From an uncultured Eubacteriales bacterium (GTDB lineage: Bacteria > Acidobacteriota > Aminicenantia > Aminicenantales > Aminicenantaceae): a stretch of DNA of 64,000 bases. A program made the position numbers and the translations under genes. The stretch is taken from positions 35,014 to 99,013 of the forward strand of contig CAYOSH010000009.1 in NCBI GenBank assembly GCA_964406575.1, given 5' to 3'. The stretch's first letter is position 1, and each line of letters begins with the position of its first letter. The notes under the pieces were generated by a model. That model had not been told where the DNA came from. It ran no database searches and saw only the letters and a list, made by a program, of their open reading frames with translations. This document shows, piece after piece, positions 1,890 to 54,031 of this stretch.

Positions 1890-1890
1890 A

Positions 1891-4437: not shown

Positions 4438-4454
4438 AAGCCAGGAGGTTACGG

Positions 4455-6842: not shown

Positions 6843-6865
6843 AGAAAATGCTCCTCCATATCTGA

Positions 6866-27242: not shown

Positions 27243-27445
27243 GTTCTCTCCTCTGACGTTGTTCCAGGAAATTGTAACACATACATCAAAATATTAAAAG
27301 CAAGCTTCTTTTGTGAGGGACCTCTTGAAAATTCCGATATATCGAGTATATATTAGAGCAGCGTTGAAACCTAAAAAAATGGCTTTGGGTGGTAGATAAT
27401 GCGTCCCCTTTCATTTCGGTCAAGTATTAAAAAAGAATAACAAGG

Positions 27446-28084
27446 TTGTCTGAATCAATGGATTCCAATCCAGATATTTCACAGAACAAACTTTATAATA
27501 AGGGACTCTATCTCGAATATTTTACTATCGCCTATAACATCGTGGAGGCTGTCTTGTCTATCCTCTTCGGGAGTTTGGCCAAGAGTATCGCTCTTGTTGG
27601 ATTCGGGCTGGACAGTATCGTCGAATCCCTATCCGGGATGATCTTGATCTGGAGGTTGCGCAAGCACGGGAAGATCCCCGAAGAGGAAGAGGAGAGGATC
27701 GAGAAAAAAGCCCAGAAATTTGTAGCCCTGACCTTCTTTACGCTGGGTCTCTATGTCCTCTTCCAATCTGTCAAAAAGTTAGTCTTCAAGGATATCCCCG
27801 ATCCTTCTATTCCTGGAATAATCATTGCTCTCGTATCGTTAATTGTGATGCCTGTGTTGAGCCATCAAAAACACAGGACGGGTAAACAGATCCGGAGCGA
27901 AGCCTTGATTGCCGACTCGAAAGAAACTCTGGCTTGCGCCTTCCTTTCCCTGGCGTTACTTATAGGGCTGGGATTGAATGTTCTCTTCGGATTCTGGCAG
28001 GCGGATGCCATTACGGGATTGATCATTGTTTTATTTTTAATGAGGGAAGGCCTTGAGATCTGGAGAGAATCAAGAGAAGAGTAA
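27446..28084 (+). CDS. cation-efflux (CDF-like) transmembrane-domain protein lacking a cytoplasmic C-terminal domain
   Basis: 212 aa, about 5-6 hydrophobic helices. AVLSILFGSLAKSIALVGFGLDSIVES and ALIADSKET resemble CDF TM2/TM5 metal-site regions. Start is TTG 27446 or ATG 27458. Confidence 0.6.
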   Translation: MSESMDSNPDISQNKLYNKGLYLEYFTIAYNIVEAVLSILFGSLAKSIALVGFGLDSIVESLSGMILIWRLRKHGKIPEEEEERIEKKAQKFVALTFFTLGLYVLFQSVKKLVFKDIPDPSIPGIIIALVSLIVMPVLSHQKHRTGKQIRSEALIADSKETLACAFLSLALLIGLGLNVLFGFWQADAITGLIIVLFLMREGLEIWRESREE

Positions 28085-28108
28085 AAAATTTCGGCTTTTT
28101 AAAAAATC

Positions 28109-28207
28109 ATGAGGAGACAGATTGACATCGCGGTCATTTTCTTGCTGATAAGTCTGGTCGGTTTCTGTCCGCTTTATGTAGCGCTTAGTATAAACAAGAA
28201 AATGTAA
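28109..28207 (+). CDS. possible 32-aa DUF2892 (YgaP-like TM) mini-protein or remnant
   Basis: MRRQIDIAVIFLLISLVGFCPLYVALSINKKM carries the G-F-C-P-L-Y signature of DUF2892. No convincing RBS. The ORF is below the ORF-track size cutoff. Confidence 0.25.
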   Translation: MRRQIDIAVIFLLISLVGFCPLYVALSINKKM

Positions 28208-28215
28208 TAAAAAAG

Positions 28216-28245
28216 TTGACAAGGCATAGGGGGGTATGGTATATT
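28216..28245 (+). promoter_or_regulatory. sigma70-like promoter with an embedded CsoR-operator-like G-tract site (site A)
   Basis: TTGACA (28216-28221), 18 nt, TATATT (28240-28245). The spacer contains CATAGGGGGGTATG (28225-28238), and the 12-mer TAGGGGGGTATG is shared with site C. Confidence 0.55.
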
Positions 28246-28308
28246 ATAATTGAAAGGAGATTCAAGATTGTTTAGAAGAAGTAAATTAAACGTAAGGAGG
28301 TAAAGAAA

Positions 28309-28524
28309 ATGTGGGGAAATCATTGGATGTTTGGGGGTTTTATGTGGATATTTTGGATTGGGGTGCTCGTGGCACTATTCTTCTTTATCAAATGGATAGT
28401 CCAACAAAAACCTGGCTATCAAAAACCTGAGGAAAATGCTCTGGATGTATTAAAAAAGAGATATGCAAAAGGTGAGATCGATAAAGATGAGTTCGAGCAG
28501 AAAAAAAAGGATTTATTATCATGA
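28309..28524 (+). CDS. small membrane protein with a C-terminal SHOCT domain
   Basis: One N-terminal TM helix (FGGFMWIFWIGVLVALFFFI) plus LKKRYAKGEIDKDEFEQKKKDLL (SHOCT signature). Strong RBS AAGGAGG. Confidence 0.8.
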   Translation: MWGNHWMFGGFMWIFWIGVLVALFFFIKWIVQQKPGYQKPEENALDVLKKRYAKGEIDKDEFEQKKKDLLS

Positions 28525-28865
28525 AGTTAGTAAAGGCCTATATCAGGACATTTATGGCCGATGATGTCATTAATGCCTTGAAAGATCTTAAGGCACCGAG
28601 GATTACGGCTATTGATGTAAAAGCACTTGGAGACGAGATTGACCCAGGTGATCTTAAAATTTCCGCAGAATTAAGCTCGACGTACACCACTATGGTAAAG
28701 ATTGAAATTGTCTGCACGGATGAATGTGTGGAGAGAGTAAAGGAAACAATTCTGAAGTATGCAAGAACGGGATATAAGGGCGATGGTTTAATTGCCATTT
28801 CGCATGTAGATGAGGCCATAAGCATAAGGACTGGGAAGAATGGAGTTTTACCATTTTCAGAGTAG
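28521..28865 (+). CDS. PII-superfamily (GlnB-like fold) protein with a divergent T-loop
   Basis: MKLVKAYIRTFMADDVINALKDL...MVKIEIVCTDECVERVKETILKYARTGYKGDGLIAISHVDEAISIRTG parallels GlnB/GlnK (MKKIEAIIRPFKLDEV...KIEIVV...ARTGEIGDGKIFV...IRTGE). ATGA overlap with the SHOCT gene. Confidence 0.8.
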   Translation: MKLVKAYIRTFMADDVINALKDLKAPRITAIDVKALGDEIDPGDLKISAELSSTYTTMVKIEIVCTDECVERVKETILKYARTGYKGDGLIAISHVDEAISIRTGKNGVLPFSE

Positions 28866-28912
28866 GAAATTACATACAAGCTTAATAAATTTTATACAGA
28901 AGGTGAATAAGA

Positions 28913-29287
28913 ATGAAAGATCCGATTGTGAGAAAAAGAAAGGTTGCTGTGGTAAGTTTGGCCCAGGTTTCAGACATCAATCGGATTAAAGAGAGCTTGA
29001 TGAAGATAACCGGGATGATTTCCGTAGATGCAGATGTTCAAAAAAATGTTCTCAAATTGGAATATGACCTGAGAAAAATAAAATTTGAGGTTATAGAGAA
29101 ATCAATAAAAGAATTGGGCTTGAAGTTGTCTCAGAAGTTTTTCCAAAGATGTAAAAGAGGAATGGCCAAATTCACTGAACAGAATGAATTGGATAATCTA
29201 AATGCTCCATTATCATCATGTTGTGATGATCCTAAAGGAAATGCCCGGGATTGTAAGAGTTGTATTACGCAAGGAAAAAATTTTTAG
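28913..29287 (+). CDS. degenerate HMA-like (ferredoxin-fold) domain protein with a Cys-rich tail
   Basis: KVAVVSLAQVSDINRIKESLMKITGMISVDADVQKNVLKLEYD...IEKSIKELGLKL follows the CopZ/HMA beta-alpha-beta-beta-alpha-beta pattern, but the GMxCxxC loop is replaced by SLAQVSD. The tail reads SSCCDDPKGNARDCKSC. Confidence 0.55.
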   Translation: MKDPIVRKRKVAVVSLAQVSDINRIKESLMKITGMISVDADVQKNVLKLEYDLRKIKFEVIEKSIKELGLKLSQKFFQRCKRGMAKFTEQNELDNLNAPLSSCCDDPKGNARDCKSCITQGKNF

Positions 29288-29297
29288 GCAACAATAA

Positions 29298-29317
29298 TAC
29301 CATAGCCGGGTATGGTA
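29298..29317 (+). promoter_or_regulatory. perfect 7-bp inverted repeat, CsoR-operator-like (site B)
   Basis: TACCATA-GCCGGG-TATGGTA, located 54 nt upstream of the second SHOCT-type reading frame. Confidence 0.45.
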
Positions 29318-29370
29318 ATGAACATGAAGGTAAATTCAATATAAGGAGGCAAAAATATAAGGAGACAAAA

Positions 29371-29567
29371 ATGTTGATGGGAGGCATGGGAATCCTATGG
29401 ATTCTGAATTAGTAGGTATTGCTTTTTTGTTTAAAGAGCGCTTTCAGAGCAAAAGAGAGGATGAAGTTAAAAATCAAGCTGGTGCAGTTGAGGTATTGAA
29501 ACAGAGATATGCTAGAGGAGATATCGATAGAAATGAGTTTGAGCAGAAAAAGAGAGATCTTTTATAA
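29371..29567 (+). pseudogene. second SHOCT-domain membrane protein gene, apparently frameshifted
   Basis: ATG 29371 (RBS AAGGAG) encodes MLMGGMGILWILN, then TAG at 29410-29412. The rest (VGIAFLFKERF...VEVLKQRYARGDIDRNEFEQKKRDLL*) continues in another frame, which has its own ATG at 29397 and stops at 29565-29567. Joined, the two parts parallel the gene at 28309. Confidence 0.55.
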
Positions 29568-29673
29568 AGGAAGGTTTTATATTTTTTAGAGGCGTAAAAG
29601 TGGGTGGAGAGAACATTCTCATTTTGGAAAAAACCGATATAAAAAATAAAAATATCGAAAGGAGGTGAGAAAG

Positions 29674-29838
29674 ATGACAGAAAGAGTGAAAGATTTAGTG
29701 TGTGGCATGGAGTTTGAAAAAGAGACTGCAAGCGGCTCATTCGAGTACAAAGGAAAAACCTATTATTTTTGCAGCCTAGGATGTAAGGATAAATTTGCTC
29801 AATATCCCGAGAAGTATATTGTTCAAGAGGAAAAATGA
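29674..29838 (+). CDS. 54-aa stand-alone YHS/TRASH-domain metal-binding protein (absent from the ORF track because it is too short)
   Basis: RBS AAAGGAGG lies 7 nt upstream. [54 protein letters not shown] has the C-G-M ... Y-Y-F-C-S..C YHS pattern. Confidence 0.75.
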   Translation: MTERVKDLVCGMEFEKETASGSFEYKGKTYYFCSLGCKDKFAQYPEKYIVQEEK

Positions 29839-29906
29839 GCATGTCCTAAATAAGAAGATCAATCATTTTTAAAAAGGACAGATTATTAAGAAAGGAGGTG
29901 ACAAGA

Positions 29907-30341
29907 ATGGGTAAGAACTTGAAAAAAGCAGGTGCTTTTTCTTTTATCGCAGTCCTCGTTCTTGCAGCGGCAGCCATCGGTTTTACGAGCCAGCAAACAG
30001 GCATGATGCACCAGAAGGAAATGATGGGGAAGATGGACAAAATGATGGGAAGTTGCAGCCAGATGATGATGAACATGGATAAAATGCTGATGAAGCAGTG
30101 TCCTGCGATGATGGGCATGATGATGAACATGAAAAATATGTCCCAGCAAACCAAAGCCATGATGGAGCATATGAATTCTCTGATGATGGATGAAGAATAC
30201 AAGAATAATGACATGATGAAGAGTTACATGGATACGATTCAGGAACACATGCAGACAATGAGCAATTCCATGCAGAAAGTCATGGAGACCATGCAGAAGA
30301 TGACAGAAAAAGCCTCAGAAATGCAGAAAGAGAAAAAGTAG
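29907..30341 (+). CDS. exported methionine-rich protein (putative Cu(I)/Ag(I) 'sponge')
   Basis: ATG 29907 follows AAAGGAGG. Signal/anchor MGKNLKKAGAFSFIAVLVLAAAAIG. The remainder is extremely Met-rich (MMHQKEMMGKMDKMMGSCSQMMMNMDKMLMKQCPAMMGMMMNMKNM...). Confidence 0.8.
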   Translation: MGKNLKKAGAFSFIAVLVLAAAAIGFTSQQTGMMHQKEMMGKMDKMMGSCSQMMMNMDKMLMKQCPAMMGMMMNMKNMSQQTKAMMEHMNSLMMDEEYKNNDMMKSYMDTIQEHMQTMSNSMQKVMETMQKMTEKASEMQKEKK

Positions 30342-30385
30342 CCGGTCAATGGAGGGTCGGCACCATGGATCGTGTCGGTCCTCAT

Positions 30386-30415
30386 TTGACATACTTTAGG
30401 GGGGTATGCTATTGT
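30386..30415 (+). promoter_or_regulatory. sigma70-like promoter with an embedded CsoR-operator-like site (site C), upstream of csoR
   Basis: TTGACA (30386-30391), 18 nt, TATTGT (30410-30415). The spacer holds CATACTTTAGGGGGGTATG (30390-30408), i.e. ATAC/GTAT half-sites around a G6 tract. Confidence 0.6.
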
Positions 30416-30462
30416 AGTGAGAAGAAAAAGAAAATTGGTCTCTGAGTTTAAAGGAGGTTTTA

Positions 30463-30747
30463 ATGAATGATCAGATAACAACCCACGAAGAAGAACTCGT
30501 CAGGCTCAGAAGAATAGAAGGACAGATTCGTGGAATTCAGAAAATGATCGAGGAGAAAAGGTACTGTGTTGATATACTGACACAGCTTACATCGATCGTA
30601 GGCGCGATAAAGAGTGTTGAGGAGAATATCTTGGAAAGACACCTGAAGGGTTGTGTACATCAATCTTTCATAAAGGGAAGCAAAGAGGACAAAGCAAGGA
30701 AAATAAATGAAGTTGTAGACGTCTTGAAAAAGTTTAGAAGGTATTGA
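30463..30747 (+). CDS. csoR: CsoR/RcnR-family (DUF156) metal-sensing repressor, Cu(I)-sensor type
   Basis: 94 aa. LRRIEGQIRGIQKMIEEKRYCVDILTQL...ERHLKGCV has Cys, His and Cys at the positions of the CsoR Cu(I) ligand triad (x-C-H-C pattern). Confidence 0.85.
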   Translation: MNDQITTHEEELVRLRRIEGQIRGIQKMIEEKRYCVDILTQLTSIVGAIKSVEENILERHLKGCVHQSFIKGSKEDKARKINEVVDVLKKFRRY

Positions 30748-30757
30748 AAGGAAAAAA

Positions 30758-31144
30758 ATGAGCTATTATTTCAATAAAACAATTAAGGGATCGTTTGAAA
30801 AGGTGATTGAAAAGGTGACGGCATCTCTTAATAATGAAGGATTCGGAATTCTAACAGCGATAGATGTGAAAGAAATCCTAAAGAAAAAAATGGATGTCAA
30901 TTTCAGAAAATATAAAATTCTTGGGGCTTGCAATCCGCCTTTTGCCTATAAAGCCCTTCAAGCCGAAGATAAGATAGGAACCATGCTCCCCTGCAATGTC
31001 ATAGTGCAAGAGATAGCGGAGAATGAGGTTGAAGTTGCCGCGGTTGATCCGATCGCTTCGATGAAAGCCATCGATAATCAAGAACTTTTTGGGATTGCAA
31101 CGCAAGTCCAAGAAAAATTAAAGAACATGGTTAATCACCTCTAA
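30758..31144 (+). CDS. DUF302-domain protein
   Basis: 128 aa. SFEKVIEKVTASLNNEGFGILTAIDVKEILKKK...YKILGACNPPFAYKAL...MLPCNVIVQE is the DUF302 pattern. Confidence 0.75.
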   Translation: MSYYFNKTIKGSFEKVIEKVTASLNNEGFGILTAIDVKEILKKKMDVNFRKYKILGACNPPFAYKALQAEDKIGTMLPCNVIVQEIAENEVEVAAVDPIASMKAIDNQELFGIATQVQEKLKNMVNHL

Positions 31145-31173
31145 AGTATCGTTAATTTTAAGGAGCAATTTTG

Positions 31174-33843
31174 ATGGCTAAAGACCTAGTCTGTGGCATG
31201 GAAGTAAACAAAGATGAAGCAGCGGCCTCATCTTTATATAAAGGTAAAAAGTACTATTTTTGTTCTCCTGTGTGCAAAACAAAATTCGATGAGAATCCGG
31301 AAAAATATCTGAAGGCTAGTGAGAATAAGGGATGTGATGTTAATTTTGGCAGTCAAACTTCTCAAGAAAAAAGTCTTCCAAAGCCTGAGAATAAGCACGG
31401 AGCAATGACGGAAAGAATTGACCTCCCCATTGTTGGGATGAGCTGTGCCAGTTGTGCCTCGACTATCCAACGGAATTTATCCCATCTCAAGGGAGTGGAA
31501 AAAGCTAATGTTAATTTTGCAACCTCTAAGGCCACGATATTTTTCCAGCCACAGGATATTAAGCCTGAAGATTTTATCACCTCAATTCGGAAAAGTGGCT
31601 ATGAAGTAGGAACCGTTACAGTTGAACTTCCTATTAAAGGAATTCAATGTGCATCATGTGTTCAAAAAATTGAGAGAGCTCTTATGCAAACCAGGGGTGT
31701 CACAAAAGCCGTAGTAAATTTAGCAACCGAAAGAGCAAAAGTTGAATATCTGCCCACTGAAATAAACTTGGAGGAAATAAAACGCGCCATAGAATCTACG
31801 GGTTATAAAGTGCTTGAACTATCTCCTTCAGATGAAGGCTTAGATCCAGAAAAGGCCATTCGTGAAAGAGAATACAAGAAGCTAAAAACAAAATTTATGG
31901 TGGGGCTTAGCCTTGGTCTTATCGTGTTTCTGGGAAGTTCGCGGCACTGGTTTCCCTGGATCCCAGAAATTTTTGGCAATTTTTATGTGCTTTGGGCTCT
32001 TGCTACGCCGGTTCAATTCGTGATCGGCTGGCAATTTTACAAGGGGGCTTGGGGTGCCTTCAAGCACAGAAGCGCGGATATGAACACCTTAATTGTGGTT
32101 GGAACCTCTGCGGCCTATTTATACAGCGTGACAGCCACTGTATTCCCCTCTTTTTTTAAGGTAGGCGGTATTAAGGCACATGTTTATTTCGATACTTCTG
32201 CATTGATTATCGTTCTCATATTGTTGGGAAGACTCCTTGAAGCAAGAGCTAAAGGGCAGACTTCTGATGCCATCAAGAAGCTCATGGGTTTACAGCCAAA
32301 AACAGCTCGAGTCATCAGAGATGGAAAAGAAATGGACATTCATGTTGAAGAGGTTCTTGTCAGTGATATTGTCACCGTGAGGCCTGGAGAGAAAATACCG
32401 GTAGATGGAATTATCCGGGAAGGGAAGTCTGCCGTGGATGAGTCCATGATAACAGGAGAAAGCATACCGGTCAAAAAGAGCCCTGGCAGCGAAGTCATCG
32501 GAGCCACAATTAATAAAACAGGAAGTTTCAAGTTTCAGGCCACAAAAGTAGGAAAAAATACCGCACTTGCTCAAATAATAAAGCTGGTCCAGGATGCTCA
32601 AGGTTCAAAGGCCCCTATACAAAGATTGGCAGACGTCATTTCCGGATATTTTGTACCCATAGTCATTTCGATTGCCATTGCCACTTTCATTATATGGTTT
32701 AACTTCGGTCCGATCCCGTCTCTTACCTTCGCTCTGCTGAATTTCGTGGCGGTAATGATTATCGCCTGTCCCTGTGCGTTGGGATTGGCCACACCAACGG
32801 CTGTTATGGTTGGGACGGGAAAAGGCGCTGAGAACGGAATTTTAATCAAGGGAGGAGAAAGCTTAGAAACTGCTCATAAATTGGATACAATCGTTTTTGA
32901 CAAAACAGGAACATTGACCAAAGGGGAACCGGAGGTTACGGATATTATTGCCGTCAATGGTTTTTCCGAGGAAGAAATCTTGAAGTATGCGGCAAGCGCT
33001 GAGAAGAACTCTGAGCACCCGCTTGCTGAGGCACTTATAAAAAGTGCGAAAGAGAAGGAGATCAAGCTATTTGATCCCGAGCAGTTTAATGCAATCGGGG
33101 GGCATGGTATCGAGGCAAACATCAACGGTAAGGAAATACTCCTCGGTAACGCAAAACTCATGCGCGATCGGCAAATTGAAATCAAGAATCTCGAAACGAA
33201 GGCAGAGGATCTCGCACAGGATGGAAAGACTCCCATATACATTTCGCTTGCAGGAAGGACTGCCGGACTAATTGGGGTGGCTGACACATTAAAAGAAAGT
33301 TCCGTCCGAGCGGTAGGCAAACTTCAGAAAATGGGACTTAAGGTCGTTATGCTTACAGGCGATAACAGAAAGACCGCTGAGGCTATCGCTAAAAAAGCTG
33401 GGATTGATAATGTGCTTTCTGAAGTTCTGCCAGAAGATAAAGTGCATGAGATAAAAAAGCTCCAATCGGGAGGTCGGAGAGTGGCAATGGTGGGTGACGG
33501 AATAAATGATGCGCCAGCACTTGCCCAAGCCGATATTGGGATTGCCATTGGATCAGGTACGGATGTGGCAATGGAAGCATCTGATATCACTTTGATAAAA
33601 GGTGATTTAAGTGGGGTTGTTTCTGCCATTGAATTGAGTAAAAAGACAATCAGAATTATAAAACAGAATCTCTTTTGGGCCTTTTTTTACAATACGGCGG
33701 GTATTCCGATTGCAGCTGGAATCCTTTATCCATTCTTTGGGATCTTGCTTAATCCCATTTTCGCGTCTATGGCAATGGCTTTTAGTTCAGTTTCAGTGGT
33801 TTCTAATTCTTTAAGGCTTAGACGAGTCAAGCTGAGAGATTAA
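31174..33843 (+). CDS. copA: copper-translocating P1B-type ATPase with an N-terminal YHS domain and two HMA domains
   Basis: YHS ([12 protein letters not shown]...[14 protein letters not shown]), HMA x2 ([18 protein letters not shown]), TGES, CPC ([11 protein letters not shown]), DKTGTLT and GDGINDAP. Confidence 0.95.
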
Positions 33844-33858
33844 TTCAGGAGTTTCGTA

Positions 33859-34233
33859 ATGTTAGTGAAAATAATAGTCACAGTTTTTGGTGCCGGAATC
33901 ATAATATTGGTCAATTGGTACTTTTTATTCTCAAGAAGAAAGACTTTTCAAGCTGAGTTAAAGGAGAAGGGAATCCAGGAAATCAAAGTTGTGGTCAAGG
34001 GGGGATACAGTCCGGATACTATTGTTGTGAAAAAGGGGATCCCTGTTCGGTTGTTTTTTTATAGAGATGAAACAGCAGATTGTTCAGATACTATTGTTTT
34101 CGGAGATTTCAAGATAAGAAAAGCCCTTCCTGCTTTTAAAACGACAGTAATTGAATTTACTCCTGAAAAAGAAGGGGAGTATGTGTTTACCTGTGGGATG
34201 GGAATGATGAGAGGAAAGCTCATCGTAAGGTAG
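33859..34233 (+). CDS. membrane-anchored cupredoxin-like domain protein
   Basis: N-terminal TM helix, then GYSPDTIVVKKGIPVRLFFYRDE...EGEYVFTCGMGMMRGKLIV (cupredoxin_1-type C..M motif). Confidence 0.7.
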   Translation: MLVKIIVTVFGAGIIILVNWYFLFSRRKTFQAELKEKGIQEIKVVVKGGYSPDTIVVKKGIPVRLFFYRDETADCSDTIVFGDFKIRKALPAFKTTVIEFTPEKEGEYVFTCGMGMMRGKLIVR

Positions 34234-34331
34234 GCATGAGAAAGAAAAACGGCTAATAAAAAGAAAGAAATTGATGATGTCATGAACTCTGTATACAAGT
34301 TTATCAACTAAATTTAAAAAGGAAAAAGAAA

Positions 34332-35621
34332 ATGAAGAAGTATTTTATACTGTTTCTTGCCATTGTCTTTGTTTTCGAGGGATTTGCAGCTTTCTCTCAA
34401 ACAGAGGTCGATAATACAAATGATGTGCTGAAAGAATTGATCCAGGAAGCATTAGAGAACAATCCCAAGCTGGAGGCTGCTATTCAACGCGCATTATCTG
34501 CTGAAAAAGTCATACCTCAAGCTGGTGCCCTTCCTGATCCAGCGCTTACTTTCGGTTTGTCGAATCTTCCGGTCAATAGTTTTGCTTTTGATCAAGACCC
34601 GATGACAGGCAAAGTGATCGGAGTCATGCAGATGTTTCCTTTTCCGGGAAAATTGTCTCTTGCGACAGATATTGCAGAATACGAGGCTGCAGCAATTAAA
34701 TATCAGCGGGAAGAGATTCGAAACCAAATTATCCAAATGGTAAAACAGACATATTTTGACTTATATGCGACCGATCGAGCCATTGAAACGACTGAAAAAA
34801 ACAAAGCATTAATGGGACAGTTTGTTCAAGTAGCGGAGACAAAATACGCTACGGGATCAGGGCTTCAGCAGGATGTCCTTCGTTCTCAGGTCGAAATCTC
34901 CAAATTAGAAGACGATCTTATCATGTGGCAACAAAAAAGACTCTCTGTAGTCGCTAGGTTGAATGCATTACTGAATAGACCTGTTGATACTCTTGTTGAT
35001 AAGACACTTCCAGAGCTAAAGTTGCCTGATGGTCCAGTAACAATTTTTCCTGCCGAGAAAATAGAGCAGAATAGGCCGCTCTTGAAAGCCTGGAACGAAA
35101 GGATTCAAAAGGCGGAGACGGCCGTTAAACTTGCCGAGCGTGACATTTGGCCCAATTTCACAGTCGGAGCCAGTTACCGGCAGCGCAACCGTTTAGCTGA
35201 TGGCAGGCAGATGACTGACTTTTTTTCTGCCACTGTATCGCTGAACATCCCGCTCTACTTTAAGCGCAAGCAAAAGGCAAAAGTGGCAGAGAAAAAGTTG
35301 GGCTTCAATGCGACCAAGTCTGAGTATGAAAATGTAAAAATCAATATTTTATCGGAGATAAAGAGCATATTAGCTGAACTGGAGCGAAACCGGAAGAGAG
35401 TGGAATTGTATAAGGGCGGCATTCTCCTCCAGGCCCAGCAGTCACTTGAGTCTGCCCAAGCAGGCTACCGCGTGGGAAAAGTTGATTTTTTGACTCTTAT
35501 AAACAACTGGATGATGCTTCAGAATTATGAATTGCAGTATTTCTTTGCGGTATCCAATTTTTATAAAAATTTAGCGAATTACGAACTTGCGGTTGGCGGG
35601 AATGATATCCAAGGAAACTGA
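34332..35621 (+). CDS. TolC-family outer membrane factor (CusC-like)
   Basis: Signal peptide. Two repeated alpha/beta OMF halves, and the typical N-terminus LKELIQEALENNPKLEAA. Confidence 0.8.
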   Translation: MKKYFILFLAIVFVFEGFAAFSQTEVDNTNDVLKELIQEALENNPKLEAAIQRALSAEKVIPQAGALPDPALTFGLSNLPVNSFAFDQDPMTGKVIGVMQMFPFPGKLSLATDIAEYEAAAIKYQREEIRNQIIQMVKQTYFDLYATDRAIETTEKNKALMGQFVQVAETKYATGSGLQQDVLRSQVEISKLEDDLIMWQQKRLSVVARLNALLNRPVDTLVDKTLPELKLPDGPVTIFPAEKIEQNRPLLKAWNERIQKAETAVKLAERDIWPNFTVGASYRQRNRLADGRQMTDFFSATVSLNIPLYFKRKQKAKVAEKKLGFNATKSEYENVKINILSEIKSILAELERNRKRVELYKGGILLQAQQSLESAQAGYRVGKVDFLTLINNWMMLQNYELQYFFAVSNFYKNLANYELAVGGNDIQGN

Positions 35622-35669
35622 ATCGTATGGTTAATTATAGAGAAGAAAAAAACGACATAGGAGTATAGA

Positions 35670-37460
35670 ATGAAAGCAAAAATTTTCGCTATCCTTATTA
35701 TTGGGATTGTTATCGGAGCCACAGCGACCTATTTTATTGCGCCGATAGTAAGAACATCAGGAGGTGAAATTCCTGAAACTGGGGAGCAGCTCTATTCTTG
35801 TGGAATGCATCCAGAAGTCATTTCCGATAAACCAGGAAATTGCCCAATATGCGGAATGAAGCTCACGCCCATTAAAAATACCGCTCAGGATATAGGGCAA
35901 ATACAAACTGGCGAATCAGCACAAGAACGTAAGATCCTCTACTGGCGTGCTCCTATGGACCCCACAGAAATCTACGATAAACCCGGAAAATCCAAGATGG
36001 GAATGGACTTGATACCTGTTTATGAAGGTGAAGAAGCAGGGGGAGCAGGCAGCATAACCATTGATGGTGCTTTACAGCAGAACATGAATCTGCGAATTGC
36101 CAAAGTTGAGCGTCGGGATATCTCCAATGTGATCCGGGCTTACGGTAAAGTCACTTATGCGGAAGATCAAGAATACTCTGTCAATACAAAAATCAGTGGA
36201 TGGATTGAAAAGCTCTATGTCAACACCAGCGGTCAAAAAGTAGAAAAAGGTCAACCTCTATTAGAGATTTATTCGCCTGAATTGGTTTCTACCCAGGAAG
36301 AGTATCTGCTTGCCTTGAACAATTACGAAAAATTGGCTTCAAGTCCATACGAGAGTGTCCGAAAAAGCGCTGAAAAAATGGTCACTTTAGCAAGGGATCG
36401 TCTGGAATATTGGGATATTTCAAAAACTGAGATAGATAATATTGAAAAAACGGGCAAATCCCACCGGTCCATTCTTTTGCAGGCTCCAATAGCAGGCATT
36501 GTCACTCATAAAGCTGTGGTCGAAGGAGATAAAGTCGGTCCTGGCATGGATCTTTTCCTTATCGCGGACCTGAGTAAAATCTGGGTAGAAGCTTCTGTCT
36601 ATGAATCGGAACTCTCTTTCGTTAAAGTCGGACAAAAGGCCGAGCTTGAACTTGATCATCTTTTGGGGCAGAAACTGGAAGGAAAAGTTGATTTTATTTA
36701 TCCTTACCTCGATCAAAAATCGAGGGCAAATAACATCAGATTGGTGTTTAACAATCCTGATCTTTTCTTAAAACCCGATATGTACGCTACCGTTAGCATT
36801 TACAGCCATGCCGCCAGTGATTCATTGGCTATTCCCTCAGAGGCGATCATTCATTCTGGAAAGCGCAAGATTGTTTTTGTTACGAAAGGTGATGGAAAGT
36901 TTGATCCTCGAGAGATAAAAATCGGAGCAGAGTCCGAAGATGGGTACATCCAGGTCATCTCCGGCTTGTTCGATCATGAGGAGGTTGTAGTATCCGGGCA
37001 ATTTCTGTTGGATTCAGAAAGCAGGACCCGGGAAGCCATCGCCAAGATGCGGGCAGTCCAGACACAGAGGACTCAAAAAGTTTCCAAAGAAGAACAGAAA
37101 AGCGCCGCTGAATCTCATGAGATGGAACATGGAGTTGAGTCCGTCGAAAGAGCTCCAGAGACTGAATCACATGAAAAAGTCGAGCACAGTCATGAAGTCC
37201 AAGAACATGAAAAACAGGAGATTGATGCCGATAGGTTATACACCTGTCCCATGCATCCTGAATTCATTACCTCTGATCCTAACGCCAAATGTCCTGATTG
37301 TGGTATGAACCTCGTACCAATAAAGGAATTGGGTGATAAAGTCAATCTTGAAAAGGCTGAATTCTATACTTGTCCCATGCATCCCGATTTTTTAACTACA
37401 GATAGAAACGCTCGTTGTCCGGAATGCGGCATGAAACTGGAAAGGGCAAAAAAGAAATAG
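35670..37460 (+). CDS. cusB: RND periplasmic adaptor (CusB-like) carrying three Cys4 heavy-metal-binding domains
   Basis: MFP core (LLEIYSPELVSTQEEYL..., GIVTHKAVVEGDKVGPG...). Three HMBD modules: YSCGMHPEVISDKPGNCPICGMKL, YTCPMHPEFITSDPNAKCPDCGMNL and YTCPMHPDFLTTDRNARCPECGMKL. A His/Glu-rich linker is also present. Confidence 0.85.
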   Translation: MKAKIFAILIIGIVIGATATYFIAPIVRTSGGEIPETGEQLYSCGMHPEVISDKPGNCPICGMKLTPIKNTAQDIGQIQTGESAQERKILYWRAPMDPTEIYDKPGKSKMGMDLIPVYEGEEAGGAGSITIDGALQQNMNLRIAKVERRDISNVIRAYGKVTYAEDQEYSVNTKISGWIEKLYVNTSGQKVEKGQPLLEIYSPELVSTQEEYLLALNNYEKLASSPYESVRKSAEKMVTLARDRLEYWDISKTEIDNIEKTGKSHRSILLQAPIAGIVTHKAVVEGDKVGPGMDLFLIADLSKIWVEASVYESELSFVKVGQKAELELDHLLGQKLEGKVDFIYPYLDQKSRANNIRLVFNNPDLFLKPDMYATVSIYSHAASDSLAIPSEAIIHSGKRKIVFVTKGDGKFDPREIKIGAESEDGYIQVISGLFDHEEVVVSGQFLLDSESRTREAIAKMRAVQTQRTQKVSKEEQKSAAESHEMEHGVESVERAPETESHEKVEHSHEVQEHEKQEIDADRLYTCPMHPEFITSDPNAKCPDCGMNLVPIKELGDKVNLEKAEFYTCPMHPDFLTTDRNARCPECGMKLERAKKK

Positions 37461-37514
37461 TCAATCTCTCTTCTGATAAGTATGAGAAGGAATCTCTTTT
37501 GAAAAATTGAATGG

Positions 37515-40500
37515 ATGGAACGAAACATGCTGGAAAAAATTATTGAATGGTCTGTTAACAATCGGTTCTTAGTAACAATCGGCATCTTTGCTGTAATCCT
37601 TGCCGGAATTGTGTCAATACAAACAACACCTGTTGACGCCATACCTGATCTTAGTGATGTTCAGGTCATCATCCTCACCGAATATCCGGGCCAGGGGCCC
37701 AATGTTGTTGAAGATCAGGTGACGTATCCCTTAACAACAGCGATGCTGGCTGTCCCGTATGCGACTGTTGTCAGAGGGTATTCCTTTTTCGGTTTTTCAC
37801 TTGTTTACATCCTTTTCGAGGATGGCACTGACCTTTACTGGGCACGCAGTCGAGTGCTTGAGTATTTGAATTTTGCTGCAGGTCGACTGCCACAAGGCGT
37901 AATCCCTCAGCTCGGTCCCGATGCAACAGGGGTGGGATGGGTATATGAATACATTCTTGACGGCGGCGATAAATACGATCTCCAACAATTGAGGTCGATT
38001 CAAGATTGGTATTTACGGTATGAATTGGCCAGCGTTCCGGGCGTTAGTGAAGTAGCCAGCATCGGTGGTTTCGTTAAACAGTATCAGGTCGAGGTGGATC
38101 CTCTTAAACTTCAGGCTTATAACATCCCTCTTCAAAAAGTCAGAATGGCCATAAAACGAAGCAATAACGATGTCGGGGGCCGGCTGATCGAGATGGGTGA
38201 GACAGAGTTTATGGTCAGAGGGCTGGGATATATCAAGAATATCGGTGACTTGAAATCTGTTCCCGTTGGGATGGGACCGAATAATGCACCCATTCTCCTG
38301 AAGGATATTGCCAATATACATCTCGGTCCGGAGCTTCGGCGTGGAATAGCAGAGTGGAATGGAGAAGGCGAAACCGTTGGGGGGATCATTGTCATTCGGT
38401 TTGGCGAGAATGCTTTAAAAGTCATTGATGGAGTGAAGGCAAAGCTAGAGGAATTGAAAAAAGGTTTACCTGAGGGAGTGACTGTGAAAACAGCTTATGA
38501 TCGTTCCTCTTTGATAAAGCGTGCTATTTCGACTCTGAAAGAAAAATTACTCGAAGAGACTATCGTAGTGGCTCTAATCATCATTATTTTTCTCCTCCAT
38601 CTGTCGAGCTCATTTGTAGCTGTTTTTACTCTTCCGCTGGGGGTTTTAATGGCCTTTATTGTCATGAGGGCCCAAGGGCTCAATGCAAACATCATGTCAC
38701 TGGGAGGGATTGCAATTGCCATTGGGGTTATGGTGGATGCCGTTGTCGTCATGATCGAGAATGTCCATAAGCACATGGAAAGGGAGCCATATCAAAAAGG
38801 CAAAGAAAGGTGGGGTCTAATCATCAAGGCCTCAAAAGAGGTCGGACCTGCCTTGTTCTATTCATTGCTGATCATAACTCTTTCGTTTATTCCTGTCTTT
38901 ACCCTGCAGCAGCAGGAAGGAAGACTCTTTAAACCGCTGGCTTATACAAAGACATACGCCATGGCGGCATCTGCCTTCCTGGCCATCACAGTTGTTCCTG
39001 TATTAATGGGGTATTTTATTCGGGGTAAGATTAAACCGGAGGCTAAACACCCTCTTAGCAGAATTCTCATTAGATCGTATCGGCCTGTAATTCATTTTGT
39101 TCTTAAACATAAAATGGCTACAATCCTTGTAGCTGTACTGATTGTTCTTGTAAGCGTTTTCCCCTTCTCCAGACTCGGATCTGAATTTATGCCGCCTCTG
39201 AATGAAGGAGATTTGCTTTATATGCCAACCACTTTGCCAGGAATATCAGTCACGAAAGCCAAAGAGCTCCTTCAGCAAACAGACAAAATCATTGCCAGTT
39301 TTCCTGAAGTTGAATCTGTATTTGGGAAAATTGGACGAGCGGAGACAGCCACAGATCCCGCTCCTCTGACTATGATTGAGACCACCATCATGCTGAAGGA
39401 TGAAAAGGATTGGCGACCAGGAATGACCATAGAAAAACTGACAGAAGAGCTTAACGATGCTGTCCAATTTCCTGGTCTGACCAATGCCTGGACGATGCCT
39501 ATCAAAACGCGGATTGATATGCTGAGCACAGGTATTAAAACACCAGTAGGAATCAAACTTATGGGTCCTGACCTGCAAACTCTTAGCGATCTGGGAGAGC
39601 AGATTGAGGCTATCATACGTCAGGTTCCGGGAACTGGAAGTGTGATCTCGGAAAGGGTCACAGGAGGAAATTATTTAGACTTTATCATTAATAGAGAAGC
39701 GGCTGCACGCTACGGACTAACAGTAGGTGATGTTCAAGATATCATAATGTCTGCTATTGGCGGAATGAATGTAACGACAACTGTAGAAGGATTAGAGCGA
39801 TATCCTGTGAATGTGCGGTATAGCCGGGAATTGCGTGATAATTTACCTGCTCTAAAACGTGTCCTGATTCCAACACCGTCTGGGGCTGAAATCCCTCTTA
39901 GTCAAGTGGCAGATTTCCAGATTAATAAGGGACCTGCAGCCATCAAGAGCGAGAATGCCAGAAGAACAGCATGGCTGTATGTAGATCTACGGAATATTGA
40001 TGTTGGCTCTTATGTCAAAATGGCAAAGAAGGTTGTCGATACAACTGTGGAGTTTCCCCCGGGTTATAGTATCGTCTGGAGTGGGCAATATGAATATATG
40101 CAGCGCGCTCAGGAACGATTACGGCTTGTTGTTCCCGTAACACTATTGATTATTTTCTTGTTACTTTATTTCAATTTTAAAAACATCGGAGAAAGCCTGA
40201 TCATCATGCTGTCTCTCCCTTTTGCTCTGGTCGGTGGAATCTGGCTGATGTGGGTGAGCGGATACAACATGAGTGTGGCTGTGGGGGTCGGCTTCATTGC
40301 TCTGGCTGGCCTTGCTGCTGAAACAGGAGTCGTGATGTTGCTTTATATTGACAATGCCTATAAGGATCGTTTATTGCATGGACAGATGAACACCCGGGAA
40401 GATCTTCATGCCGCAATCGTACATGGAGCCGTGGAACGAGTGCGGCCGAAACTCATGACTGTCAGTACGACTATTATAGGATTGTTACCCATTATGTGGG

Positions 40501-40676
40501 GGCACGGAACCGGTTCACAGGTGATGAAACGTATAGCAGCACCAATGGTCGGAGGTCTGATCACATCCACGTTCCTCACTCTTATTGTGATTCCTGCGAT
40601 TTATTATCTATGGAGAGGAAGAAAATTGAGAGGGGATGAAAAGAAGGATCAGGACTATAAGCATCAAAGCGATTGA
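37515..40676 (+). CDS. cusA: HME-RND inner membrane pump, CusA-type (Cu(I)/Ag(I))
   Basis: Collinear with E. coli CusA as I recall it (TPVDAIPDLSDVQVII...GPDATGVGWVYEY...). The three Met of the CusA Cu site appear conserved (DLLYM, APLTM, RIDM). An alternative start at ATG 37527 fits the family N-terminus. Confidence 0.9.
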   Translation: MERNMLEKIIEWSVNNRFLVTIGIFAVILAGIVSIQTTPVDAIPDLSDVQVIILTEYPGQGPNVVEDQVTYPLTTAMLAVPYATVVRGYSFFGFSLVYILFEDGTDLYWARSRVLEYLNFAAGRLPQGVIPQLGPDATGVGWVYEYILDGGDKYDLQQLRSIQDWYLRYELASVPGVSEVASIGGFVKQYQVEVDPLKLQAYNIPLQKVRMAIKRSNNDVGGRLIEMGETEFMVRGLGYIKNIGDLKSVPVGMGPNNAPILLKDIANIHLGPELRRGIAEWNGEGETVGGIIVIRFGENALKVIDGVKAKLEELKKGLPEGVTVKTAYDRSSLIKRAISTLKEKLLEETIVVALIIIIFLLHLSSSFVAVFTLPLGVLMAFIVMRAQGLNANIMSLGGIAIAIGVMVDAVVVMIENVHKHMEREPYQKGKERWGLIIKASKEVGPALFYSLLIITLSFIPVFTLQQQEGRLFKPLAYTKTYAMAASAFLAITVVPVLMGYFIRGKIKPEAKHPLSRILIRSYRPVIHFVLKHKMATILVAVLIVLVSVFPFSRLGSEFMPPLNEGDLLYMPTTLPGISVTKAKELLQQTDKIIASFPEVESVFGKIGRAETATDPAPLTMIETTIMLKDEKDWRPGMTIEKLTEELNDAVQFPGLTNAWTMPIKTRIDMLSTGIKTPVGIKLMGPDLQTLSDLGEQIEAIIRQVPGTGSVISERVTGGNYLDFIINREAAARYGLTVGDVQDIIMSAIGGMNVTTTVEGLERYPVNVRYSRELRDNLPALKRVLIPTPSGAEIPLSQVADFQINKGPAAIKSENARRTAWLYVDLRNIDVGSYVKMAKKVVDTTVEFPPGYSIVWSGQYEYMQRAQERLRLVVPVTLLIIFLLLYFNFKNIGESLIIMLSLPFALVGGIWLMWVSGYNMSVAVGVGFIALAGLAAETGVVMLLYIDNAYKDRLLHGQMNTREDLHAAIVHGAVERVRPKLMTVSTTIIGLLPIMWGHGTGSQVMKRIAAPMVGGLITSTFLTLIVIPAIYYLWRGRKLRGDEKKDQDYKHQSD

Positions 40677-40787
40677 TGATCTTTGCATTCAATCATCCTC
40701 TCCGGAGTTATAGAGCGTTTACGGCTGCTCACATGTGGGCCTTGAGATAAGGAGTGCTTTTCAAAAAAGGATTCGTTTTAAAATTCA

Positions 40788-40829
40788 TTGACAAATACTA
40801 TAGATATTATAAAATATATATACTATAAG
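40788..40829 (+). promoter_or_regulatory. promoter-like AT-rich element with an internal ATACTATA direct repeat
   Basis: TTGACA (40788-40793) is followed by AATACTATAGATATTATAAAATATATATACTATAAG. ATACTATA occurs at 40795 and 40820. The element lies 28 nt upstream of the ATG at 40857. Confidence 0.35.
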
Positions 40830-40856
40830 AAGCATTTATTTCTAAAGGAGATTTTA

Positions 40857-41480
40857 ATGTCGAAGAAAACATTGCTACTGGTAGTATTTCTTGTTTTTTC
40901 AATGACTCTAGTAATGGTTGCGTTGGACAAGAGCGTGAATGATGAAACCCTGAAATGTCCGGTAAGCGGCAAAGAATTCAAAAAATCTGAAGCCACTCCG
41001 AAATATGAATACGAGGGAAAGACGTATTACTTCTGTTGTGAAAACTGCAAGGATGCTTTCATCAAAGATCCCGAGAAGTACACCATAAAGGAAGAGCCTG
41101 AAGGCCATATGCACCATCAGATGGAAGAACGCACAGAGGAACATGCCGGTCATATGCACGCCGAACAGGATAAAAACGGTATGGTTGTCGATCCCGTCTG
41201 TGGGATGGAGCTCAAAAAAGAAGATGCCAAGGCGACATATGAGCACAATGGCAAAACTTATTATTTCTGCACGGAGGAATGCAAGGATAAGTTCGTTAAA
41301 GAGCCCGGCAATTACATCAGGGCCGATGAAGATATCGTCACCTGTCCGGTGAGCGGTGAGTCGTTCAATAAATCGGAGTTCACCGAATCCATCGATTACG
41401 AAGGAAAGACCTATTATTTCTGCTGCTTGGGATGCAAAGAGAAGTTTGAAAAAAATCCGGAGAAGTACGTTAAGAAGTAG
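40857..41480 (+). CDS. exported protein with three tandem YHS domains and a His/Met-rich linker
   Basis: ATG 40857 after AAAGGAG. Signal/anchor MSKKTLLLVVFLVFSMTLVMVA. The YHS modules end ...YEGKTYYFCCENCKDAF, ...HNGKTYYFCTEECKDKF and ...YEGKTYYFCCLGCKEKF. The linker reads PEGHMHHQMEERTEEHAGHMHAEQ. Confidence 0.8.
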   Translation: MSKKTLLLVVFLVFSMTLVMVALDKSVNDETLKCPVSGKEFKKSEATPKYEYEGKTYYFCCENCKDAFIKDPEKYTIKEEPEGHMHHQMEERTEEHAGHMHAEQDKNGMVVDPVCGMELKKEDAKATYEHNGKTYYFCTEECKDKFVKEPGNYIRADEDIVTCPVSGESFNKSEFTESIDYEGKTYYFCCLGCKEKFEKNPEKYVKK

Positions 41481-41495: not shown

Positions 41496-42476
41496 CTACA
41501 AGATCCCCTTGTCTTTCAGCCAGGCATTGTTGTAGATCGAGCTGAGGTATCGATTGGCTGAGTCTGGAAAAATTGTGACGATTCTGGCATCCGTGTCAAT
41601 TTCCCGAGCTAACTTCAGGCATCCCCACAAGGCGGCACCACTCGATCCTCCGGCCAAGATAGCTTCTTTATTGGCCATTTCTCTGGTCATTTCAAATGCC
41701 TGTTTATCCGTGATTTTGTAAATATCGTCAATCAAGCTGAAATCAACACAGCCGATGAGAAACTCATCCCCCAAACCTTCAAGAAGATATGGCGAAGGTT
41801 TTATAAGTTCTTTGGAATGAAAATAGTCAAAAAAAACAGAACCTGCAGGATCGATTCCGATAACTTTTATGTTCGGATCTTTTTCTTTGAGATATTTGGC
41901 CACTCCACAGATCGTTCCACCTGTGCCGATGCCGGCTAAGAAATAGTCTATTTTTCCCTCCATTTGCTCCCAGATTTCAGGGCCGGTTATCTTGGTATGG
42001 GTTTCGTTATTCTCACGATTGTTGTGCTGATCGAGATAATAGCTATTGGGTGTATCTTTGGCTATCTGCGGTGCAAGGTTGTTATAGCTGCCGGGGGATT
42101 CAGGGGAGAGTGTACTGTCGACCATAATGAGTTCAACATTTAGAGCCTTGAGGAATTTTATTTTTTCAGAACTCAGACTGTCCCTGACGACGATTTTCAA
42201 CGAGTATCCTTTTATTGCGCAAACCATCGCCAAAGCAAGCGCCGTGTTTCCCGAAGAGTTATCCACAATTGTGTCTCCTGGCTTTATCCTACCTTCTTTC
42301 TCAGCCTTTTCGATCATGTGTTTGGCGATCCGATCCTTTATGCTCCCCATGGGATTCAAAAATTCGAGCTTGGCAAAAATATCTGCTCGGACCTCTTTTG
42401 TTATTTGATTTAGTTTGATCAATGGAGTATTGCCTATGCCTTCCAGGATATTATGAAAATATACTTCTTGTGACAT
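41496..42476 (-). CDS. PLP-dependent cysteine synthase / cystathionine beta-synthase family enzyme
   Basis: GNTPLIKL...NPMGSIKDRIA (PLP-Lys motif)...SSGNTALALA...GIGTGGTICG. Confidence 0.85.
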   Translation of the reverse strand: MSQEVYFHNILEGIGNTPLIKLNQITKEVRADIFAKLEFLNPMGSIKDRIAKHMIEKAEKEGRIKPGDTIVDNSSGNTALALAMVCAIKGYSLKIVVRDSLSSEKIKFLKALNVELIMVDSTLSPESPGSYNNLAPQIAKDTPNSYYLDQHNNRENNETHTKITGPEIWEQMEGKIDYFLAGIGTGGTICGVAKYLKEKDPNIKVIGIDPAGSVFFDYFHSKELIKPSPYLLEGLGDEFLIGCVDFSLIDDIYKITDKQAFEMTREMANKEAILAGGSSGAALWGCLKLAREIDTDARIVTIFPDSANRYLSSIYNNAWLKDKGIL

Positions 42477-53911: not shown

Positions 53912-54031
53912 GCTCGCTATCCAGGCACCAATAAGTATATCAATAAGTTGCGGCAAATCGCATCAGCAAAATAACACAAGAATATTTTGATGTCAAAATC
54001 GGAAATCAACGAAGAAAGAAGAAAACAAAAC

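Follow-up and report, generated by a model that had tools for sequence, protein, structure and literature searches.

Is the AT-rich block of copper-related genes that lies between yebC and a PALP/cysteine-synthase-like gene (hereafter cysK) in a genome of Candidatus Aminicenantes an acquired island, or an old chromosomal locus whose contents have changed, and are its many genes of unassigned role part of a copper system? We addressed this question in a 64,000-nt stretch of contig CAYOSH010000009.1 (hereafter, the window), which belongs to a metagenome-assembled genome (MAG) of 4.34 Mb with 46.9% GC and 89% completeness. Aminicenantes are a widespread, uncultured lineage of sediments and the subsurface. 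Gene identities were taken from the open reading frame (ORF) listing together with Pfam and NCBIfam scans, and the block is very probably a chromosomal copper/silver homeostasis locus, in which known core machinery is combined with conserved accessory genes of unassigned role. All 15 genes named in the initial annotation, made from the sequence letters and ORFs, were recovered with Pfam. They lie on the + strand between the minus-strand yebC and cysK genes in the order CDF, SHOCT1, PII-like, HMA-like, SHOCT2, YHS mini-gene, Met-rich, csoR, DUF302, copA, cupA, outer-membrane factor (OMF), cusB, cusA and 3xYHS; ruvC, ruvA and ruvB, also on the minus strand, lie upstream of yebC. The description of the block as a copper/silver locus with many Cu(I)-binding modules was borne out by gene identities and ligand motifs, but the redundancy of these modules, originally considered unusual, is typical of the copper loci of this lineage and not peculiar to this genome.

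The genome under study (G000) was compared with related genomes of its order (G001-G029), of which G001-G005 are the members of the same genus with assembled flanks and G010 represents another genus; individual compared loci are designated L###. A copper locus occupies the site in every one of G001-G005. In G003 the order is yebC-csoR-DUF302-copA-cusCBA-x-3xYHS-cysK, csoR and copA lie beside yebC in G002 and G005, and a CDF gene lies beside yebC in G001 and G004, followed by csoR in G001. Across the order, yebC adjoins CsoR/CopA-type genes in families f1, f2, f4, f7 and f8, and lies within ~5 kb of them in f3; the genomes outside the family with CsoR/CopA(YHS) genes beside yebC are G015, G017, G019, G024, G025, G027 and G029, with G020 and G028 having them within ~5 kb. 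Direct adjacency of yebC and cysK was found in G011, G013 and G018 (gaps of 57-171 bp), which represent three genera of the family and contain no match to any of the nine upstream block proteins, from CDF to DUF302. Because copper genes flank yebC across the order, the copper locus at this position is likely ancient, and the empty yebC-cysK sites are most simply explained as losses. The comparison of gene order with relatives, proposed at the outset as a check for a core locus, thus yielded a mixed answer: order is not uniform and content differs, but a copper locus beside yebC recurs in at least five families.

Comparison of the contents of the site revealed a mosaic. Between G000 and G003, amino acid (aa) identity reaches 90% for YebC, 92% for CysK and 72% for the 3xYHS protein, and stands at 71% for CsoR, 63% for DUF302, 69% for CopA and 31/33/48% for CusC/B/A. 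DNA homology between these two same-genus genomes stops at 27353 and restarts at 40787, a position that coincides with the 3xYHS promoter, defining a variable segment of 27354-40786. Of the limits first assigned to the block, 27446-41480, the right-hand one did not hold in this comparison, since the 3xYHS end belongs to the conserved cysK-side flank. Within the variable segment, positions 28205-29798 (1.6 kb, from promoter A through the YHS mini-gene) share 85-87% DNA identity with contig C96 of G010, a genome whose ruvA, ruvC and yebC genes are only 66-76% identical to those of G000 at the DNA level. The stretch from csoR to cupA is 86-91% identical in DNA to G004 and G007, with G004 flanks at 75-86%; cusCBA of G004 is only 74% identical in DNA, and CusC identity is 66% aa in G004 versus 90% aa in G007. 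We conclude from these comparisons that the site has probably stayed fixed while recombination and the exchange of cassettes among Aminicenantes replaced its interior, as opposed to a mobile island having inserted. What now fills the site appears to be foreign and to consist of sub-cassettes with different histories, swapped among Aminicenantes lineages.

The composition of the block is consistent with this scenario. Profiling of GC, GC content at third codon positions (GC3) and k-mers confirmed that the block is more AT-rich than its neighbours, as had been noted by eye, by a modest amount: its GC content of 42.2% is lower than that of 97.7% of the 14-kb windows of the genome (2.3rd percentile), and its tetranucleotide distance falls in the top 2.2%. 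From SHOCT1 to cusA, GC3 ranges from 0.26 to 0.44, in the lowest 1-5% of 2523 long ORFs (genome mean 0.538 +/- 0.058), with the exception of the Met-rich gene (0.635). The edge genes are native in composition, with GC3 values of 0.559 for CDF and 0.543 for 3xYHS. The type-A cassette has low GC3 (0.37-0.47) in G007, G010 and G012 too, and the type-B cassette of G003 has native GC3 (0.46-0.56). Low GC content (37-44%) is also seen at positions 1-7000 and 54000-58000 of the window, which encode response regulators, histidine kinases and PAS/HD-domain proteins. The reported lack of integrase, transposase and flanking repeats was upheld by Pfam and repeat searches, which detected no integrase or transposase domain in any block gene and no direct or inverted repeats of att type spanning the borders, all repeats found being internal and paralogous (YHS, SHOCT, HMBD and promoter-operator); no tRNA gene is found in the window. 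The locus would be old at its position, with a content that turns over by recombination between the conserved edges yebC/CDF and 3xYHS/cysK, and such recombination, together with the exchange of sub-cassettes, would account for both the low interior GC3 and the absence of mobility genes.

The initial proposal of one acquired island between yebC and cysK did not survive these comparisons. A single, recently acquired island, inserted there by a mobile element whose integrase and att repeats have since decayed, would be in line with the deviating GC and tetranucleotide composition, with the direct adjacency of yebC and cysK in three genera of the family and with the patchy occurrence of the exact CusA type within the genus. 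We nevertheless regard it as unlikely, because at least five families of the order have copper genes beside yebC and the site is occupied in all genus members with assembled flanks. Moreover, the CDF and 3xYHS edges combine native GC3 with flank-like identity, the interior segments differ in their nearest relatives and identities and are not present or absent as one unit, and no integrase, tRNA or terminal repeat is found. If relatives exchange the interior of an old chromosomal site one cassette at a time, without mobility genes and with the site itself staying fixed, a metal-resistance region can resemble an island in its low GC and patchy content without being one, which calls for caution in composition-based island calling in MAGs.

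Three predicted operators point to common regulation of most of the block. The operator consensus, TACCATAGGGGGGTATGGTA, was used to scan both strands of the genome with up to 3 mismatches, yielding 3 sites, all of them intergenic and within the block, against a chance expectation that we estimate at ~0.26 assuming equal base frequencies. The 12-mer TAGGGGGGTATG occurs twice genome-wide, both times in the block. The three operators of the block fit the published hallmark of CsoR type-2 operators, in which a TAC-X9-GTA dyad brackets a G-tract and a second GTA may be present (PMC3902906). Promoters A and C, into which two of the operators are set (Table 1), are the best sigma-70-like promoters of the region. 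The architecture of promoter A recurs upstream of SHOCT-PII genes in L018, L026, L032-L035 and L037-L040, that of promoter C is kept upstream of csoR in 11 loci (L011, L012, L017, L018, L024, L025, L038, L050, L058, L060 and L061), and in L033, L034 and L036 a conserved operator B precedes SHOCT2 or the YHS mini-gene. The consensus is not circular, because copies with 0 mismatches precede csoR in the unrelated MAGs L050 and L061. Overall, the TTGACA-operator-TATxxT architecture was identified at 10 sites in relatives and at 24 sites in loci of other phyla encoding members of the PII-like family. Each of these 24 sites lies on the coding strand, and 23 of them immediately precede csoR, SHOCT-PII, PII or YHS genes; one further operator match in relatives falls inside copA.

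The gaps between genes from csoR to cusA measure 10-98 bp, with no internal promoter or terminator predicted within this unit. The CDF and 3xYHS genes have promoters of their own, and no CsoR-type operator was found in searches upstream of either gene, so that neither was placed in the CsoR regulon. The operator matches, their conserved promoter architecture and the CsoR type-2 hallmark together argue for a single CsoR regulon of three units, which CsoR would bind and copper would induce. The Cu(I)-sensing CsoR, with its C35-H60-C64 site, would repress, at G-tract TAC-X9-GTA operators, a first unit consisting of SHOCT1, PII-like and HMA-like genes, a second consisting of the frameshifted SHOCT2 and the YHS mini-gene, possibly extending to the Met-rich gene, and a third running from csoR through DUF302, copA, cupA, cusC and cusB to cusA. 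We infer these operon extents, together with protein topologies and with the functions assigned to the PII-like, SHOCT, DUF302, HMA-like, Met-rich and YHS proteins.

In the proposed mechanism, a rise in cytoplasmic Cu(I) would release CsoR from its three operators. Cu(I) would then be buffered in the cytoplasm and handed to CopA by the CupA-type chaperone, by YHS and HMA modules and perhaps also by the HMA-like protein with its SSCC tail; CopA would pump it into the periplasm. From there, CusCBA would expel Cu(I) across the outer membrane by way of the three-Met relay of CusA and the Met3 site and three Cys3-His modules of CusB, with the Met-rich protein and the separately transcribed, exported 3xYHS protein binding periplasmic Cu(I) in place of CusF. 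The short CDF protein, having no operator, need not belong to the regulon.

The genomic neighbourhoods of the PII-like family bear on whether the upstream cassette takes part in copper handling. A profile search assembled 80 loci from named genomes spanning at least 10 phyla, with sources in Aminicenantes, Omnitrophota, WOR-3, Zixibacteria, Binatia, KSB1, Gemmatimonadota, Balneolaceae, Bacteroidales, Chlorobiota and Nitrospirota, and neighbours were counted up to 8 kb from the PII-like gene. Of the 80 loci, 64 contain a gene of CusA/CusB-like or CopA-like type (54 of 61 when only loci of 9 kb or more are taken), 31 contain SHOCT genes, 26 YHS genes and 20 DUF302 genes. A CusA-like RND gene, often directly upstream, accompanies the PII-like gene in 46 of the 80. 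Typical arrangements are cusCBA-PII-DUF302-SHOCT, YHS-PII-copA and PII-copA-...-csoR. Literature searches for copper-related functions of PII-like, DUF302, SHOCT or YHS proteins yielded only genomic and transcriptomic hints, a YHS sensor study and island descriptions, in agreement with the earlier estimate that about half of the genes have no established copper role; nothing was found on copper systems of Aminicenantes. PII-NG genes head czc operons and, in Geobacter, are induced by Co (PMC7726332); their link with HME-RND operons of the czc type comes from Sant'Anna et al. (2009, as cited in PMC7726332; GSU2134, Geobacter sulfurreducens). A SHOCT membrane protein is silver-induced in Haloferax (PMC10694973), and a YHS domain acts as copper sensor in a mycobacterial cyclase (PMC4626032).

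The upstream cassette (SHOCT-PII-HMA-like and SHOCT2-YHS-Met-rich) could alternatively be a separate stress or nitrogen/energy-signalling module that merely sits beside the cop/cus genes. The PII fold normally serves nitrogen and energy signalling, the best PDB matches of the PII-like protein are GlnB and GlnK, its T-loop has no Cys/His/Met cluster, and the literature provided no experimental link to copper. Set against this are the csoR-type operator inside the promoter of the cassette, both here and in relatives, in a genome with a single CsoR-family protein, the frequency of Cu-type pumps near PII-like genes, the metal-induced czc operon headed by PII-NG genes in Geobacter and the silver-induced SHOCT protein of Haloferax, and we judge an independent module to be distinctly improbable. 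Membership of the cassette in the copper regulon also allows a more specific and doubtful proposal: the PII-like protein, the translationally coupled SHOCT protein and often DUF302 might constitute a conserved copper-regulon module acting post-translationally on efflux pumps. A nucleotide-binding PII trimer would dock on CopA or CusA, or be held at the membrane by the SHOCT protein, in the manner of GlnK docking on AmtB or SbtB on SbtA, and the energy or metal status would thereby set the gating of Cu(I) export. If true, PII signalling would reach transition-metal efflux in at least 10 phyla, most of them uncultured.

Purely vertical inheritance, with the low GC and uneven identities arising from gene-specific constraints (membrane proteins, low expression, Met/Lys-rich composition), is very unlikely: other low-GC patches of the window do encode ordinary signalling genes, and CopA and CusCB of G000 and G010 share 64-74% aa, near the 59-86% of their housekeeping flanks, but GC3 is native in the type-B cassette that G003 carries at this site, so that function does not force low GC3, CusCBA identity within the genus is far below that of the flanks (31-48% versus 90-92% aa), and the 1.6-kb SHOCT-PII-HMA-SHOCT2-YHS cassette is more similar between genera than ruvA, ruvC and yebC. 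Several points also weigh against the reading of the locus as one CsoR regulon with exchanged contents. The identity of csoR-cupA above that of the flanks could partly reflect stronger constraint, and MAG assembly chimerism between co-occurring strains could have generated the mosaic junctions (~27.35, 28.2, 34.3 and 40.79 kb). Because other low-GC patches hold ordinary signalling genes, low GC by itself is a weak sign of foreign origin. Operator B has no obvious sigma-70 promoter, operon extents were drawn only from short gaps and from the absence of predicted terminators and promoters, and the absence of CusF was judged from an incomplete genome (89%). Finally, the PII-like, SHOCT, DUF302 and HMA-like proteins are no more than candidates for a direct contact with copper.

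The CsoR, CopA, CupA and CusCBA core is textbook copper detoxification, and its presence in Aminicenantes is unsurprising. Like the CsoR-regulated cop operons of Bacillus subtilis (csoR/copZA), Mycobacterium tuberculosis (cso) and Streptomyces lividans, the locus combines a C-H-C Cu(I) site in CsoR with a presumably autoregulated csoR beside a P1B-1 CopA and with several promoter-overlapping G-tract TAC-X9-GTA operators per genome, three having been described for the CsoR regulon of S. lividans (PMC3902906). It differs from them in its diderm host, in the continuation of the csoR unit into a cusCBA RND system, and in an apparent regulon that includes PII-like, SHOCT and DUF302 proteins, an HMA-like protein without CxxC and YHS mini-proteins, but no CopZ. 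With E. coli CusCFBA it shares the three Met of CusA, the N-terminal Met3 site of CusB and an OMF partner; CusF and CusRS are absent here, CusB is extended by three Cys3-His HMBD modules and by a linker rich in His and Glu, cusA is followed by the gene of an exported 3xYHS protein, and control is apparently exerted by the cytoplasmic CsoR instead of a periplasm-sensing two-component system.

The CupA-type protein resembles CupA of the Streptococcus pneumoniae copY-cupA-copA operon in having a transmembrane (TM) helix, a His-less cupredoxin-like domain, a C-x-M-x-M motif and an adjacent copA. Unlike in S. pneumoniae, the partner CopA has a YHS + 2 HMA N-terminus and no CupA-like domain, cupA is downstream of copA, the regulator is CsoR and not CopY, and the host is a diderm from a distant phylum. 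Similarity to PII-NG consists of a GlnB-derived PII fold encoded in metal-efflux operons, many relatives lying directly after a cusA-like gene. The PII-like family is set beside PII-NG by fold and gene linkage, and differs in being found mainly outside Proteobacteria and, here, in sharing a CsoR-type operator with the SHOCT membrane protein and the HMA-like protein to which it is coupled. PII and SHOCT/DUF302 proteins have hitherto been tied to metal systems by genomics or transcriptomics only. The shared operator and the cross-phylum neighbourhoods make the PII-like, SHOCT, DUF302, SSCC-tailed HMA-fold and YHS proteins testable candidate components of copper homeostasis, with the exported YHS protein as a possible CusF substitute.

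Table 1. Genes, promoters and operators of the copper locus and its flanks (window coordinates).
Feature	Position	Strand	Basis or remark
yebC, conserved left flank	26493..27242	-	Pfam TACO1/YebC; 89-92% aa in five genus members
Short CDF transporter, 212 aa, transmembrane domain only	27446..28084	+	Pfam Cation_efflux 1.6e-21, no ZT_dimer
Promoter A, TTGACA-18-TATATT	28216..28245	+	Predicted operator 28222-28241 between -35 and -10
SHOCT1, single-pass membrane protein, C-terminal SHOCT domain	28309..28524	+	Pfam SHOCT 1.7e-11
PII-like protein, acidic rewritten T-loop	28521..28865	+	Pfam P-II 1.4e-14, 54.7 bits
HMA-like protein	28913..29287	+	Pfam HMA 24.3 bits, just below 24.8 cut-off
Operator B, palindrome TACCATA-N6-TATGGTA, upstream of SHOCT2/YHS	29298..29317	+	Motif search
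SHOCT2, frameshifted SHOCT1 paralogue	29371..29567	+	Pfam SHOCT 1.3e-9 on downstream frame
Cytoplasmic YHS mini-protein, 54 aa (ATG after ribosome-binding site, RBS)	29674..29838	+	Pfam YHS 7.8e-16; RBS repeat D20
Met-rich protein, N-terminal signal/anchor	29907..30341	+	Orthologues in L032, L037, L058
Promoter C, TTGACA-18-TATTGT	30386..30415	+	Predicted operator 30392-30411 between -35 and -10
csoR	30463..30747	+	Pfam Trns_repr_metal 7.1e-27
DUF302 protein, TT1751-like	30758..31144	+	Pfam 9.1e-26
CopA, P1B-1 Cu(I) ATPase, N-terminal YHS + 2 HMA (CxxC)	31171..33843	+	Pfam; NCBIfam
CupA-type membrane-anchored Cu(I) chaperone, cupredoxin fold	33859..34233	+	Pfam Cupredoxin_1; PDB 2MRY/4F2E match
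Outer-membrane factor, CusC role	34332..35621	+	Pfam OEP, 2 stretches, 3.5e-48
CusB adaptor	35670..37460	+	Pfam HlyD_D23 and HMBD
CusA-type HME-RND pump	37515..40676	+	Pfam ACR_tran; NCBIfam CusA/CzcA 1272 bits
Promoter of 3xYHS gene, TTGACA-16-TAAAAT	40788..40815	+	No G-tract operator
Exported 3xYHS protein	40857..41480	+	Pfam YHS x3, 6.1e-41
cysK (PALP/cysteine-synthase-like), conserved right flank	41496..42476	-	Pfam PALP; 89-93% aa in genus members

The ligands expected of a Cu(I)-responsive regulator and exporter are present in the core proteins. C35, H60 and C64 of CsoR, the product of the sole CsoR/RcnR-family gene in this 89%-complete MAG, align with the Cu(I) ligands of the Geobacillus (4M1P) and S. 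lividans (4ADZ) CsoR proteins, and the DUF302 protein matches the structure of Thermus TT1751 (PDB 1J3M, 4.6e-21). CopA scores 661 bits against the NCBIfam model ATPase-IB1_Cu (TIGR01511), whose cut-off is 397, and contains the motifs CPC at 533, DKTGT at 577, N-x6-YN-x4-P at 833 and M-x2-SS-x5-N at 869. In L018 (positions 3615-5678; G008, another genus), a second P-type ATPase, 40% identical to CopA, is encoded on the opposite strand between the PII-like gene and csoR. The protein following CopA had been taken for a cupredoxin; the Cupredoxin_1 fold stands, but the protein is a His-less CupA-type Cu(I) chaperone with an N-terminal TM helix and 0 His residues, matching 2MRY/4F2E (phmmer E=2.1e-25) with Cys75 and C112-G-M-G-M-M aligned.

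Aligned with E. coli CusA chains, CusA has Met at all three positions corresponding to E. coli M573/M623/M672, if the PDB numbering is taken to be shifted by a tag of 7 residues, as anticipated for a three-Met copper site, and its site region matches E. coli CusA with E=9e-59, compared with 2e-12 for ZneA. CusB keeps an E. coli-type Met3 site (PM...MGM, residues 95-112), its segment ILYWRAPMDPTEIYDKPGKSK-MGMDLIPVY aligning to ILFWYDPMYPNTRFDKPGKSPFMDMDLVPKY of E. coli CusB. Three HMBD modules were indeed found in CusB, at residues 42, 524 and 566, but a motif check revealed that each (Y-x-C-x-M-H-P...C-x-x-C-G-M) provides Cys3 + His and not the Cys4 set first attributed to them. Downstream of cusA in G012 (L012:18647-19950), what looks like a decayed second efflux system is represented by short ORFs that resemble parts of an RND pump, an adaptor and an OMF. 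CusF (PF11604) had no match across the 89%-complete genome, the E. coli and Caulobacter controls being positive, and the 3xYHS protein is a candidate periplasmic Cu carrier in its stead. This protein is 68-72% identical (aa) to those of G003 and G005, where its gene also adjoins cysK. The TTG at 40788 belongs to the -35 box of the promoter of this gene, so that translation most likely begins at the ATG at 40857, with a signal-like segment (MSKKTLLL...). In related copper loci (L027:4257-5312, L033 ~10206 and L032 ~11019), though not in this one, a YHS domain is fused to a thioredoxin-reductase-like FAD/NAD oxidoreductase, and a Rieske-like protein follows SHOCT2 in L032 and L033.

The CDF gene is a long-resident neighbour of yebC, orthologues of ~200-217 aa adjoining yebC in G001, G002, G004, G008, G010 and G014. 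Its product scores under the cut-off of the NCBIfam CDF superfamily model, and the possibility that it is a truncated pseudogene was rejected in view of the equally short orthologues in six relatives.

In the upstream cassette, the stop codon of SHOCT1 overlaps the start of the PII-like gene (ATGA). The PII-like protein, whose top PDB matches are GlnB and GlnK (best, GlnB, 6.5e-16), keeps the B-loop TGxxGDG (T83-G84..G87-D88-G89), K60 and R103 in the family alignment; its acidic T-loop has neither the GlnB Q39/K40 pattern nor, by family alignment and motif check, a Cys/His/Met cluster. The HMA-like protein has no CxxC, and all its orthologues carry an invariant tail, KRGMAKFTEQNE-x-DNL...SSCC-(D/E)-DP. 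An AlphaFold2 (AF2) model built on 10 orthologues predicted a beta-alpha-beta-beta-alpha-beta core (predicted local distance difference test, pLDDT, 78-89 at residues 1-70) that matches CopZ, CsoZ and ATP7B domains with Foldseek TM scores of 0.79-0.88, confirming the HMA fold at the level of the predicted structure; the model resolves the HMA core only, with the conserved C-terminal tail disordered at low confidence. Its relatives number 129, those with source names being Aminicenantes-type metagenome proteins.

SHOCT2 is 78% identical to SHOCT1 as a DNA repeat (D2) and is broken, as first reported, by the loss of 1 nt near 29408 relative to the intact homologues of L033 and L034. These read MLMGGMGILWILILVGIAFLF..., whereas the one-base loss here gives MLMGGMGILWILN*, which could be a real pseudogene or an error in the MAG consensus. 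The YHS mini-gene (29741-29816) shares 79% DNA identity over 76 nt with the third YHS repeat of the 3xYHS gene (41392-41467), suggesting duplication or gene conversion between the predicted cytoplasmic and exported modules. The Met-rich protein has 37 Met in 147 aa, 35 of them within the 113 residues after the anchor; its sub-threshold match to Pfam DUF4709 was taken as compositional, and membership of a Pfam family was rejected. At least three copies or variants of the SHOCT/PII/HMA-like/YHS cassette occur on different contigs of the G010 MAG (C96, C76, C24 end and C32 start). PII-like proteins 73-93% identical to that of this genome are encoded in L032-L034, L036, L037, L041 and L044, all from MAGs titled 'uncultured Eubacteriales', and four of these loci encode a YebC 83-87% identical to that of this genome, so that the label is, to judge from these identities, probably wrong.

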